In this document: in pieces, positions 36,001-42,000 of the stretch
Layout: each line of letters begins with the position of its first letter
How positions within the stretch are numbered: the first letter of the stretch is position 1
Assembly (NCBI GenBank): GCA_000165345.1
Contig: CM000431.1
Span: forward strand, 1,024,001-1,088,000
Direction of reading: 5' to 3'
DNA: 64,000 nucleotides
Program-made: the position numbers

Positions 36001-39000
36001 AGGTTGGAAATAATTCCCCTTAAATTTGTCATTTAATACAGTCAAAAAAAGATTCCTCATATAGTTATCAGGCATAAAATATCTGTTTCCATTTTCTTGA
36101 AGATCTATAAGATAATTCTCAACAATATTGCTTGAGTTTATGATGTGTTTACTGAAGAATGCTGTAATATAATTAAGAATCAATTCAATTTCCTTTAAGC
36201 TGGACTTCTCAGACTTGAAAAAGTATTTTGTTCCTCCAAAATAAATATGTTTCTCTGGCATTATAAAGCTTGCTCTGGAAATGTAACTTTGAAAAATTTG
36301 TCTAAGATGGCTCCGAAAATGCCAACCAAGCATTAACAAACAACGATCAGAACTTGAAATTGAATTATAATATAAAGGGTTTAATTGATTACCAAATTCT
36401 ACATCCAAAACTATTCTAGGAAAATTGATATTTTTTTTTGAAACAATCCTGATCTTAATATCTCCAACTATGAGCTCATTTAAATTGGGGTTATGTCTCT
36501 TTCTTTTTAACATACTGAATAAGCTACTTAATCTTTCCTCTGAAATAAATTCCTCTCTTTCTCCCTCCATTCTTTCTTGCTGACCAAACTCCATTAAGTT
36601 TAGTTCGGTAGCATATTTTTGTTGTTTCTCCACTAGACTTTTGTTGCAGAATCCATGGATCAATAAAAGTATTATGCTTAATACTTGAAACCTTGTTTTT
36701 AGTTTATCTACTGATTTCATATTAAATTAACTTAGCTTAGTAAAATTAGAAAATTTGCTCATTTCAAACATTGTGCTCGCATTTTTGTAATAAATTATAT
36801 CAATTTACAATCAAAATAATTAAAATAGCAATTTGTTAGAATTTAATTTAATAATTTACTATTAAAACAACATTAAGATAATTTAAAAGAAATAATTATA
36901 AATAAATCCTTTTCTATTATGAAAAAATTAACATTACACTAAATTAGAATAATATTATTCATCTGTGTTATATAATCAAAGCAGAAGATTTCTTCAAATA
37001 AATACAAATACGTAATTCTTAGACATATTAATTGAAAATCCTATGTTGAATATAATATGATTTGACTTTGTAAATTTCAAAAAGCTCCATTGGTTTTTTG
37101 ATTTTGGTGAAACCAGGAGGAACAAACTTTTTACATATTTTTTTATCTGAAGCACTTGCGTTTTCTGAAATACAAACGGTAATTAATATTGGAACGTTTT
37201 TAAGCGAATTAGAAAACCAGCTCTGGAATTGAATAAAATCTAAAGATCGGAGACTTGCTAAAACTTCCTCTCTCAATTTATAGTTAAATGATCTATTAAA
37301 GCTGTTTGTAATAAATGAATTCACTTCCATAAATATCGAGTCCATTTGTTCTAAACACTCTATCTTTTCCAAAAGAGCAACTCTAAAAAGCTCCTCACTT
37401 AGAATAGTTGGCGACAATTCTTTTAAACATTCTAGCAACGTGTAGATAGTACTCGTAATAGTATGATTATCTGTTTGAATGACAAATGAGTAAGAAAGAG
37501 TCTTTTCAGATACTTCACAAACTTCAGAGTTAAATTCATAAGCAATTTGTTTTTTTTGTCTTACATTTTCAAAAAGTATGTCAAAAAATACTTGATTGAT
37601 AATTTGAAGTTTGAAAAATGTTATTGGACTTTCTCTTTTAAAGAAAACAGAAAGTCTGATCAAATTATGTTTGCTCTTTATGCTTTTTGTCAAATAATAA
37701 ATCTTATTTTTATTTGGAGGTATTGAAAATAAGTCAATCATATCAAAACCATTACATTGGGTTTTCTTTCTTTTATATATATTAGAGTTTTCATTTTGTG
37801 TAAAGAAAATTTTGTGATAATATGGCTTAAGATAATTATCATTATTCGGATTATCTTTGACATAAAACAGAGGTTTGTCAATTTCAGAAAACTTGAAATT
37901 CTTTAAATTCAAAATAAAACCATCTAATACTGCTTTAAGGATATTTGCAGGAGTATCTCCGACAAAGATTCCTTCAAAAATACAAATTCTTCTAAACAAA
38001 TCTGAAAATTTAATGAACTCAGTAATTTTAACCTTATTAACTAAATTAATAAACTTTTTTGTGTTTATAAATCCCATATTTAAAACTTCATGTTCAGCTT
38101 CTCCAATCAAATCCTTATACAAAAGCTGGCTTTCAATAAGAAGCAATTTTCCTATTGTATTCTTTTTAATAAATTCAAACTCTTCACTTTTTATCTTCAA
38201 AATATTCTTCAATGTATGAGATAATTCATCTGTAAATTTGGAAAGACTTTCAAACTTTCCATACAAATAATATTCTATTCCTATAGCATAATTCGGAAAT
38301 GGGCTACGAAATGTAGGGTAAATTTGTGCGGAAATTCCTTCTTTAGATAGTCTTTCAAAGTTTAAATTTATTTTCAGTTTAATTAATTCAGAAAGCAATT
38401 GTATTAAAACACAAGAGTGGTACCCATCTTTAATATAAAAGCCACTTTCAGAAAACTGATCAAATGACTTTTTCCCAAACAACGGAGGAATCAACAATCT
38501 CAAAATAAAAAATGAATCAGGAAAAATATTCTTTGGAACATTCATATAAAACATTCCTCTCCAAATACTTGAAATCTTTAGATTTCTAGAAAACACAAAG
38601 TCTTTTTCTTTAGAAAGTTTGAGTTTTTCAAATTCATATGCAATATCAAACAATAAAGGAGGTTTAAGGTTAGTCTTTATTTGGCTATTTTTTATTTTTG
38701 ATGATTCAAGCATATTTATTGTTTGCATTGGTAAAGGAACATTACTAAAATCGATCCCAGATTCTATTTTAATTTCCGAAATCGATTGAAGAAACTTATT
38801 TGTAAAATCCCAAATAGAATAATTTGTATTAAAATATTTCTCTGACAATAAATATTTGTTTTCTATATTTCTAATGCGACCAGAGAGTATAATAGTTGAA
38901 ATGTAATCTTTAAAGTTATATTTTTTATTTATATAATCCTTGTGGTTTGATTTTTGGATAATTTCTTGTTTAATTAAGGTACCCAGATCAAAATTGGAGT

Positions 39001-42000
39001 CTATAATAATTGTTACCATATTTTCAACATTCAAATAACTCATAAAGTCTTCAAAAACTTGTTGTGAAAATTGAGGTGCAGAATAAATAGCAGAAAATAA
39101 CTTTTCTGGAGTACCTTTTGTTAAATAATATACCTTAAGTAATTCTAATATTTGTATCGATGGTAGAGTGTCTTCTATTTTAAGAAAGTTAAGATAATCT
39201 TTATTCGCAATCCTTTGAATATATTCATCAATCAATTCTGTCTTTTTGATAATCTGAAATGCTGAAAATAGAGATAGAATAATTTCTCTAATATTAAAAA
39301 CTCCTTCTTTAGTAAGAAATAGGTAAAATGTAATATAAGAAAATCCCAATTGAGAATAAGTTTCATTCAATGATATTTTATGGCAAAGATTTTTTTGAAT
39401 TATATCGTTAAGTAGTCCTTCTCCTGATTTTGGACAAAGGAAAAAAGATAGATATTGAGAAAAAATCCTTGATAGTCCGTACTCTTTTTTAGGCAATGAA
39501 AACATAAGCATTAACTGACTCGCATTTATATTTAAGTGGATTTTTACCAATTTCTTTGAAATTCCCAAATATGGAAGCTCTGGGAACAATGATAAAGATT
39601 CTGGTTTTGGAGATAGTCTTGAACAAGATCTAACATTTGAAAAATATTTATATGAGATTTTGGATAATTCTTGAATAGAAATATTACTCAAAATAAATAA
39701 TACCATATTTTTAGAGCCATAGTATTCCTCAAAAAAGCGAATAGTTCTTTCTCTAAGTGAAATTCCGTTTTTTTCAGGTATTTTCTTCAAAGTTTTTGAA
39801 TTACCATAGAAAAACTTACTGTAAATATGGGTTTCATCTGCAATCTGTTTCAATACATGTTCCAGTAACGTATAAAAGTTATTTGTTTTAGATAGGAATT
39901 CATTTTCTACAATATTTATTTCATTTTGAAGGTATTCTTCAGAAAATAAAGGGGATTTGAAAAATTCGCAGAACCTCTCTAATGCTGGTTCCAAGAATTG
40001 ATTTGGAATAAAAAATGAGTAATGAGTCATTAAAATGTCTGTAGATGCATTTGTAGCTCCACCATAAGTTCTTACAAATTTACCAAACTCATTTTGTCCT
40101 GGAAATTTTTCTGTTCCCAAAAATACTGAATGCTCTAAAAAATGAGCTAATCCATCGATTTCAGATCCTTCATTAGCTGAACCAACTTTCACAACAAGGT
40201 TGACTGAGGTACTTGTTAATTTTTCACTTGAAATAAGAAATACTTCAAGACCAGTTTTCAGCCTTTCAAATTTGCATTTAAAACTAGATTCTTTTGGTTT
40301 AATAAATTCAGAGTCTTCAACTATTTCTAAATATTTGGAGCTATTTTCTTCAATTGCCATTTCTTTTTCTCAAATTAAAACTATAAACACGAACATATCT
40401 GTCAAATCAATTAGCTCAATTTATTACTAATAGGGAAATCAAATTTTAAGAATTATTTCAGAAATATAATGTTTCAAGGTTATCAATTTTCAATATTCAT
40501 AATTTATTAAGCATTGGCGCCACATGCACCATTGCATACAATAGCAAAGTTAATTGAATGTATAAAAAAAGAATTTAGATTAAATAGTTTAATTCAAAGT
40601 GGCATTCAATAAAATACAAGTTATATAAACAAACGTAATAGCTAATGCGGATTTTCACATCCAGCTAATGCTAAAAAAAAATTTATGCTCTTATCAGTGC
40701 ACATTAAGTACATACTATTGACACACTGGCTTTATTTGCTGACAGAGATGTAGCTGTTCATTCAATTGAATTCATGTTAAACAATTCAGGAGAAATGAAT
40801 TTATTAAGTCAAACATGATAATAAAACTCATTTTACAAACAATTACTATTCCTTAATGAAACGCAGTGAATTAATAAAAAAGACATTGTGTTTTTAAGGG
40901 AGATTGTTAAGTTGTTTGTCAACTCTGGAATATGCCGGTTTGAATGTTTTAATTCCATGAAGTTTGAAAATATCGGTTGGATCACGTAAGTGCGTAAAAC
41001 CATTTGGAACTATTGGTTGCGATTTATAAGACATTGAATATAATATATAAAATGCTGACTTGCGTACTTTTTCAAGGTTTGAAGTAAAATTCTCAAAAGT
41101 TAGTCGATCTAGGAGATTCACAACTGATCTGAACCTAGTGAAATCGAATCTTTTGTTGATGATTTCTTCAAATATATTTACGACTAAGGAATCCAAATAA
41201 TGCCCTTCCTTCTTGTACTTTTTCAAAAGAGATTCTTTTATTGAATTGAACAGGTCTAGATTAAAAATTGAAGAGCCTGAAGAAATGAATGTATCTAGAT
41301 AACTTAATAATAGTTCGTTTATTGCATTTGAGTCTTCTTTGCTTGATGAGCCCTCTATTGAGATTAAATATGAGCTTGAAGATATATGATAATTTTTTAT
41401 ATAAGTATTTATATTATTATTATTTTTTTGAAGGTAATTCAGTCTATTTTCTATAATAAGTTTAAGGTATTGAGTAAATATAAATGATTCTGGAGAGGCT
41501 TTATCAATATATATCCATAAAATTGAAACATTTACTTTATCATTTGTGTTTTCGTATAAGAAAAACTTCGAAATAGGTCTAATTGATGACATATCTAAAA
41601 TCTGCAAATTCTTACATTCCTCTGAATTTGATTTAGAAACAGCTGAAGAGTAAAGCTTATAAAGTTTTGATTTAGAAAGCATTTCACTTTTAATAATTTT
41701 TGTTTTATTGGTAGTTTTTGTTTTATTGGTAGTTTTTATTCTATTAATAATTTTTGTTGTATTGGAAATCTTTGTTCTTTGATCATTATTTTTGGTCAAA
41801 CTTTTCTTTCTCTTACTCAACGCAATCTTTCTGGTTTTAGCTCGTCTCGACCCGATTTTAGTTATCATACGCGAGTATCTTAATCTCATTGATACTCCCG
41901 ACTTTCTTCCAGATTTAAAAATTAAAGTTTTTTTCTTTGGGGTTTCACCAATTAAATTTGAAAATAATCGACTCAGATACTTCTCCGCGTCTAATGGAGT

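Follow-up and report, generated by a model that had tools for sequence, protein, structure and literature searches.

INS13 of Cryptosporidium parvum, a probable intracellular M16A metalloprotease without a signal peptide in the chromosome 3 INS gene array

We analyzed a 64,000-nucleotide stretch of the genome of Cryptosporidium parvum or a very close relative (positions 1,024,001 to 1,088,000 of the forward strand of contig CM000431.1, GenBank assembly GCA_000165345.1), hereafter called the window, which carries a tandem array of insulinase-like (INS, peptidase M16) genes. The subject of this report is one member of that array, cgd3_4240 (INS13). The evidence below makes it probable that the array encodes two fully competent M16A metalloproteases, of which INS13 is one, that INS13 is the only array member lacking a signal peptide and so probably an intracellular enzyme, that it has its own promoter with an E2F-type box, and that it belongs to a Cryptosporidium-specific radiation, not being an orthologue of insulin-degrading enzyme (IDE), within which it has probably kept an ancestral condition.

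Results

The array consists of 12 consecutive open reading frames (ORFs), all on the minus strand, in a window that has a G+C content of ~27-36% and carries long uninterrupted ORFs. The Pfam models Peptidase_M16 and Peptidase_M16_C were matched in 10 of the 12. These are the chromosome 3 genes cgd3_4170 through cgd3_4280, previously described as 12 consecutive tandem IDE-like genes (PMC3305300). The eighth ORF is intact, as a preliminary description made from the sequence alone had stated, and encodes 1110 residues in a single uninterrupted exon. Its product is 99.8% identical (BLASTP) to the NCBI entry "insulinase-like peptidase" of C. parvum. Gene order, together with the identity of the neighbor directly upstream (40894-44490; identity with C. 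meleagridis cmbei_3004250, 76% over the full length), establishes the ORF as the already annotated C. parvum gene cgd3_4240, which is named INS13 in Table S2 of PMC5146892.

The INS13 protein contains each of the catalytic motifs that had been ascribed to it. A zinc-binding motif of the inverted type, HxxEH, is present in the first domain as H73-F-L-E76-H77 (in GLAHFLEH), followed by N104-A-S-T107 and T112-H-Y114, which form the NAxT..TxY block, and by E152-N-E154 (in IVENEFLSK). In an alignment of all 12 array members with IDE and pitrilysin homologues, E147 and E154 coincide with the ExxxxxxE glutamates of the homologues, so that the third zinc ligand is present, and VR934QKKQIAY941 coincides with the IDE sequence LRTKEQLGY, so that the C-terminal Arg/Tyr pair is present as well. 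We take E147 and E154 to be the counterparts of Glu-182 and Glu-189 of human IDE.

The complete catalytic set was defined as H73, E76, H77, E147, E154, the NAxT..TxY block, and the C-terminal R934 and Y941. This set, otherwise common to true IDEs, is found in two of the 12 array members, INS13 and INS15 (cgd3_4260). INS15 has HYLEH, NAYT..TSY, ENE, and the C-terminal R..Y pair behind a signal-peptide-like N terminus. Because INS15 also holds every catalytic residue, the earlier claim that INS13 is the only member with all three motifs is false. INS16 (cgd3_4270), which is 83% identical to INS15, keeps HYLEH and both glutamates (IDDEF) and has lost the NAxT..TxY block (ETYS..ARY), and a glutamine replaces the arginine of its C-terminal R..Y pair. 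The remaining nine members carry no zinc or catalytic ligands and are likely pseudoproteases.

The catalytic residues and the C-terminal Arg and Tyr are invariant in eight aligned sequences (that of the window and seven orthologues). The ratio of nonsynonymous to synonymous substitution rates (dN/dS) of INS13 is 0.13-0.14 relative to chipmunk genotype I and C. ubiquitum, similar to the values for cgd3_4220 and cgd3_4230, and about half those for cgd3_4250 and cgd3_4260 (0.24-0.26). A pseudogene reading of INS13 was rejected, given an intact ORF in seven species and a dN/dS of 0.13. The residues present suggest that the gene encodes a conserved M16A clamshell protease that is probably active.

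Several further observations were made on the array genes. INS16, a recent duplicate of INS15, looks like a copy partway toward a pseudoprotease. The products of cgd3_4190 (17809-21084) and cgd3_4230 (35044-36720) have signal-peptide-like N termini and no Pfam M16 match. At 558 residues, the cgd3_4230 protein has half the usual length, and its size and position are kept in all six other species with a dN/dS of ~0.13. An antisense ORF within INS13 (37875-38219, 114 residues, TTG start) was judged to have arisen by chance in AT-rich DNA.

By sequence, the best solved relative of INS13 is human IDE, with an E value of 1e-48 over residues 27-459 only. Pfam detected Peptidase_M16 (E = 2e-25) and Peptidase_M16_C (E = 4e-19) in INS13, amounting to two of the four M16A domain models, as against all four in INS15 and in INS16. 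The description of INS13 as fully canonical was therefore overstated, since two of the four models are matched and the similarity to IDE is confined to residues ~20-460. An AlphaFold model (built on 29 sequences with Met-1 left out, so that model numbering is one lower than the residue numbers used here) had a predicted local distance difference test (pLDDT) score of 81 and a predicted template modeling (pTM) score of 0.74 and comprised four alpha/beta domains. A Foldseek search of the PDB with this model returned human or rat IDE for all of the top matches, over ~1125 columns, with an E value of 8e-53 and template modeling scores of 0.68 (query) and 0.78 (target). The predicted structure thus has the four-domain, single-chain chamber of the M16A enzymes. 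A word-indexed homology search with the 590-residue C-terminal half (37028-38800, minus strand) gave no match, not even to the identical C. parvum protein, which looks like a limit of the tool with a low-complexity protein encoded by AT-rich DNA and not like a biological result.

The similarity to human IDE (M16A; PDB 7K1F and 2G47) extends to the HxxEH motif with the distal Glu, the NAxT..TxY block, the C-terminal R..Y pair, a clamshell of four domains over the full length in the predicted structure, and the lack of a signal peptide. Nevertheless, the two proteins are 17-18% identical overall, INS13 is ~100 residues longer with low-confidence inserts at 489-496, 539-561, and 854-871 (model numbering), it has no peroxisomal-type C terminus, and it is not an orthologue but is placed in a Cryptosporidium-specific clade (see below).

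Of the 12 array proteins, INS13 alone has no signal peptide, as the preliminary description had proposed. In the first 45 residues the maximum Kyte-Doolittle hydropathy (11-residue window) is 1.24 for INS13 and 2.10-3.35 for the other eleven proteins, and no transmembrane-like segment was found anywhere in INS13. All seven orthologues also lack a signal peptide and start directly at the domain; the orthologue species were chipmunk genotype I, C. ubiquitum, C. felis, C. bovis, C. ryanae, and one Logan assembly. An in-frame stop lies 4 codons 5' of the INS13 ATG, leaving 3 open codons, and across seven species the first upstream in-frame stop is 4-23 codons from the ATG (3-22 open codons). The preliminary description had raised the possibility of a cryptic upstream exon encoding a signal peptide. 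No conserved exon of this kind was found in the intergenic regions of the seven species, where the upstream mini-ORFs are short, non-homologous among species, and mostly not hydrophobic, and a hidden signal-peptide exon is unlikely. A mitosomal presequence was ruled out by the acidic N terminus of the protein (MAIEENSSKYLEIVEDSEF). Lacking a signal peptide, a transmembrane segment, and a basic presequence, INS13 is predicted to be intracellular and probably acts inside the parasite, in the cytosol.

The palindromic box that had been noted in the INS13 promoter is present and conserved. The sequence TTGGCGCCA occupies positions 40514-40522, and TGCATG, an ApiAP2-type TGCAT motif, directly precedes it on the strand of the gene. 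In the window TGGCGCCA occurs 3 times against an expectation of 0.04. In all seven orthologous intergenic regions, 440-637 bp in length, there is exactly one GGCGCC. It lies at -161 to -237, in most cases behind a TGCATG, and column identity in the alignment around it is only 45% on average. The conservation of the box is a genuine phylogenetic footprint. The Cryptosporidium E2F/DP-type consensus has been given as TGGCGCCA or [A/T][C/G]GCGC[G/C][A/T]; among the upstream motifs of C. parvum the E2F-type element shows the strongest over-representation, and TGCAT is a known ApiAP2 motif (PMC3734150, PMC12246861). Positions 40515-40522 match the published consensus exactly and are a candidate site for E2F/DP. 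The INS13 box shows no structural difference from the known motif, being of exact consensus and lying upstream of its gene as at DNA polymerase alpha. DNA polymerase alpha is a classical E2F target, and the 507 bp that separate cgd3_4280 from the divergently oriented polymerase gene contain two further exact copies of TGGCGCCA (56359-56366 and 56655-56662). No [GC]GCGC[GC] core was found in the C. muris spacer 5' of DNA polymerase alpha.

Every GGCGCC in the window (5 of 5) is intergenic, the others including cores at 21294-21299 (about -233 of cgd3_4190) and at 5022-5027, 5' of a P-type ATPase gene (495-4790). A GGCGCC-core box also lies 196-426 nucleotides 5' of the cgd3_4220 orthologue in six of six other species, in four of them as an exact TTGGCGCCAA. 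The matching site in the window (34783-34792) is degenerate (CTAGCGCCAA), and the 462-bp spacer that contains it has no GGCGCC, which may represent a lineage-specific loss of a promoter element.

The relationship of INS13 to IDE was assessed by profile searches and by neighbor-joining trees of Kimura plus gamma distances, using two column sets and two taxon sets; the trees took in ten array members, leaving out cgd3_4190 and cgd3_4230. In all trees the included Pfam-positive array members group together with 100% bootstrap to the exclusion of every IDE, so that INS13 lies in a Cryptosporidium-only clade with the other nine. The best matches of INS13 outside Cryptosporidium are IDEs. In an exhaustive search with a profile of 4240 orthologues, the nearest proteins after the orthologues themselves were those of the INS15 lineage, which aligned end to end at 334-290 bits. 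The IDEs scored 245 bits or less with the same profile, over the first ~460 positions only, and their similarity to INS13 is not whole-length but spans residues ~20-460. Against a panel of IDEs and pitrilysins that was itself selected using INS13, the median score was 228 bits for INS15 and 157 bits for INS13. On these scores INS15 is the more IDE-like protein. The earlier view of INS13 as a canonical IDE orthologue does not stand in the face of the 100% bootstrap for a Cryptosporidium-specific clade and the higher scores of INS15. Indeed, the C. parvum INS protein reported to be closest to human IDE is INS1, encoded on chromosome 1 (cgd1_1680; PMC8092296).

Within the array the closest paralogue of INS13 is INS15 (32% identity, 219 bits), a protein of the same family with the identical complete catalytic set. 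However, INS15 and INS16, which have been characterized previously (PMC6843835, PMC9315855, PMC11478815), have signal peptides, are reported in secretory compartments, and are far more highly expressed. INS1 resembles INS13 in being an M16A protease with an active HxxEH motif and late expression (36-48 h; PMC8092296) but differs in its chromosome and in having a signal peptide. INS1 is also strongly female-specific, with a log2 value in counts per million (CPM) of ~7.3 in sorted females compared with 1.3 for cgd3_4240.

The gene order 4280-4260-4250-4240-4230-4220-4210 is identical in C. bovis, C. ryanae, C. ubiquitum, and one Logan assembly, which implies that all of the array lineages are older than the radiation of the intestinal species. 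The C. felis array has a second 4260-type copy in place of 4280, and the chipmunk genotype I contig ends inside a 4260-type gene. A secreted INS gene of C. canis with an HLVEH motif, located 655 bp from a contig end (JAPCXB010000102, 655-4065), falls inside the array clade. It was tried as an outgroup from outside the array and rejected because of this nesting, which points to array members as the source of dispersed or subtelomeric INS genes.

The profile search with 4240 orthologues also identified proteins of C. muris RN66 annotated "insulinase, putative, partial" (XP_002142941, XP_002142961, and XP_002142917). C. muris has at least two such M16A copies, 89% identical to each other and ~25-34% identical to INS13, which carry the complete catalytic set (HFLEH, NAET, DNE, and LRTKQQLGY). 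Neither a signal peptide nor an upstream ORF that could encode one was found for these copies. Their start coincides with the aligned start position of INS13, with which they have E15, D16, F19, K21, and P22 in common. No GGCGCC box was found upstream of them. One copy lies directly upstream of genes for DNA polymerase alpha, a SNARE-like protein, and a kinase, which are 50, 40, and 39% identical, respectively, to the genes at 56771-63948 of the window. These matching flanks place the C. muris M16A genes at the same locus as the array. The C. muris gene (DS989743, 1-9278) is on the strand of the polymerase gene whereas the array is on the opposite strand (window region compared, 52529-61237), implying an inversion. 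The C. muris locus has probably been collapsed in the assembly, with near-identical copies ending at contig breaks. Directly 5' of an M16A gene, C. muris contig DS989745 contains a 5.3-kb stretch (4642-10000) with 15.5% G+C and no ORF of 120 residues or more, which is unusual for so compact a genome.

In the trees the C. muris proteins join the array clade with 100% bootstrap. With full-length columns, 87-99% of bootstraps leave C. muris outside the intestinal array, and a specific pairing of C. muris with the 4240 or the 4260 lineage does not emerge (4260: 0-1%). The state "no signal peptide and active" is plausibly ancestral for the locus, and among the C. parvum array members INS13 alone still shows it. 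The proposal that INS13 gave rise to the secreted copies, as their progenitor, can therefore be accepted only in the weak sense that INS13 retains the ancestral condition. In its favor are the active C. muris copies without signal peptides, at the same locus and outside the array; against it are the weakly supported position of the 4240 lineage and the INS15 sequence, which has kept more of its ancestral character than that of INS13.

The expression data do not fit a housekeeping gene, as INS13 had been called. In the supplements of PMC6877471 the log2 CPM averages for cgd3_4240 are 2.4 in sorted asexual stages, 1.3 in sorted females in vitro, and 3.9 in females in vivo. Another sheet gives ~6.4, 3.1, and 4.5 in three triplicates, which we read from the sample list as sporozoites, 24 h, and 48 h; of the array genes that this sheet shows, cgd3_4240 has the lowest values. 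Published RNA data describe low expression of cgd3_4240 with a sharp peak 48 h after infection. Because sorted females are low while bulk 48-h cultures rise, the 48-h signal may come from male gamonts or late meronts.

The coordinates of the features discussed are collected in Table 1. Elsewhere in the window, a protein with an RRM domain (5426-7561) has an N-terminal half made up of at least 8 repeats at a spacing of ~34-35 residues that contain SSSSEDE[QK]xKK.

Table 1. Positions of INS13, its promoter, and related features in the window
Feature	Position	Strand	Basis and remarks
cgd3_4240 / INS13	37028-40360	-	Predicted M16A (IDE-fold) metalloprotease, no signal peptide; ORF, motifs, Pfam, AlphaFold
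cgd3_4240 promoter and 5' region	40361-40893	-	533-bp intergenic; no conserved upstream ORF for a signal peptide
Palindromic E2F-type box TTGGCGCCAC, core TGGCGCCA at 40515-40522	40514-40523		161 nucleotides 5' of the ATG; seven-species conservation
INS15 (cgd3_4260)	44879-48397	-	Catalytically complete, signal peptide; closest paralogue of INS13
INS16 (cgd3_4270)	48579-52184	-	INS15 duplicate, 83% identity; NAxT lost, R to Q
INS array, twelve genes cgd3_4170 to cgd3_4280	9268-56263	-	ORFs, Pfam, catalytic alignment, PMC3305300
DNA polymerase alpha catalytic subunit (cgd3_4290)	56771-61237	+	Flank marker for C. muris synteny

Discussion

By analogy with its family, INS13 would fold into a four-domain clamshell, or "peptidasome," like that of IDE, in which H73, H77, and E154 would hold the zinc ion and E76 would activate the water molecule, with R934 and Y941 of the C-terminal half helping to anchor the substrate. 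The closed chamber would admit short, unfolded peptides only, which would be cleaved in a zinc-dependent manner. INS13 would do so inside the parasite, probably in the cytosol, with the neighboring gene products routed to secretory organelles, and would be transcribed from its own promoter, which carries the conserved E2F-type TGGCGCCA box beside the TGCATG element. As a member of a Cryptosporidium-specific radiation, it would probably keep the ancestral condition of its locus, as in C. muris, most of the paralogues having gained a signal peptide and then lost catalysis.

Concerning the origin of the array, we put forward, as a tentative proposal at somewhat less than even odds, that the secreted and mostly inactive proteins arose at this locus from an intracellular, active IDE-like enzyme; that the signal peptide was gained at about the time the gastric species diverged or later; that cgd3_4240 kept the original intracellular role; and that C. 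muris represents the state before the expansion. A number of points weigh against this proposal or against the wider account of INS13 given above. The trees are neighbor-joining trees only, and the comparisons did not take in the other C. parvum INS proteins that lack signal peptides, INS3, INS4, and INS5. The 4240 lineage is the first to branch within the array in most trees, but with a bootstrap of only 17-63%, so that the position of INS13 as basal, which had been expected, is not upheld. In the slow-taxa, N-terminal data set the 4240 lineage pairs with the INS15 lineage with 59-68% bootstrap, and by BLAST the C. muris protein is nearer to INS15 (~350 bits) than to INS13 (~220 bits). Published tables mark the INS13 slot of C. 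andersoni as "not orthologous" and list some C. andersoni genes as orthologues of INS11, INS15, and INS16 (PMC5146892), so that some of the array may be older than the separation of gastric from intestinal species. The C-terminal half of INS13 is strongly diverged, and it is there that the two Pfam domain models fail. Finally, the localization and activity of INS13 are predictions from its sequence. Human IDE can leave cells without a signal peptide, and the lack of one is thus no proof of a cytosolic location.

The same tree and similarity data can be accommodated if the array descends from a secreted ancestor whose signal peptide was lost twice, once in the 4240 lineage and once, independently, in the C. 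muris copies, making INS13 a derived, re-internalized protein. The secreted INS15 lineage contains the closest paralogue of INS13 by every similarity measure, and its pairing with the 4240 lineage in the N-terminal data set and the C. andersoni assignments in the published tables would both fit such a history. The leaders of several secreted members are, moreover, alike by eye near the predicted cleavage region, as expected of a single old signal peptide. However, two independent losses would be needed, after which the start codons of INS13 and of the C. muris copies would have to coincide exactly in the alignment; the IDE-like proteins used as outgroups, insulysin of the coccidian Hammondia among them, begin directly with the domain and have no leader; and C. 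muris never groups with the 4260 lineage specifically. We therefore consider secondary loss unlikely, although it is the alternative that deserves most attention. An orthologue of the IDE of other eukaryotes, acting as a canonical cytosolic housekeeping enzyme and the direct progenitor of the secreted copies, is a considerably more doubtful identity for INS13. The complete catalytic set without a signal peptide, the IDEs as best matches outside Cryptosporidium, the first-branching position of the 4240 lineage in several trees, and the leaderless syntenic gene of C. muris are what it would predict. It is contradicted by the single 100%-bootstrap clade of array and C. muris genes separate from all IDEs, by the closer approach of INS15 to the IDEs (228 versus 157 bits, with a branch of 0.71 versus 0.92-1.23), by the report that INS1 is closest to human IDE (PMC8092296), by the high divergence of the C-terminal half, and by expression that is the lowest of the array genes shown (log2 CPM of ~3 at 24 h and 1.3 in sorted females) with a peak at 48 h.

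It is very improbable that the gene model is wrong, or that INS13 is secreted all the same, through a hidden 5' exon or unconventional export, and acts with its neighbors at the host interface. Introns occur in ~4% of C. parvum genes (table in PMC5146892), and the export of human IDE mentioned above provides a precedent. Nevertheless, the in-frame stops 4-23 codons upstream in seven species, the nature of the upstream mini-ORFs, and the fact that the promoter box is the only conserved upstream block all argue against it. We accordingly favor the account in which INS13 is a leaderless, probably intracellular protease that has retained the ancestral condition.

The basic picture of the locus is unchanged by this work: the gene, the array, the number of HxxEH-bearing members, and the E2F motif are already in the literature. 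In the literature searched we found no dedicated study of INS13, no census of the array that includes the C-terminal Arg and Tyr and arrives at two complete members of 12, and no description of the conservation of the promoter box in seven species or of the syntenic C. muris copies without signal peptides. The INS proteins are among the largest families of the very small Cryptosporidium proteome and are studied as invasion or virulence factors and as candidates for determinants of host range. That only two of the 12 genes, INS13 and INS15, appear to encode fully competent enzymes, and that INS13 is conserved and probably both intracellular and separately regulated, is a guide to which copies should be treated as proteases and which as pseudoenzymes, and the predicted intracellular location cautions against counting INS13 among the secreted determinants of pathogenesis. 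The comparison with C. muris provides a concrete, testable scenario for the origin of the secreted array. If true, it would represent a dated and syntenically anchored conversion of a cytosolic enzyme into a secreted family that is thought to act in host interaction.

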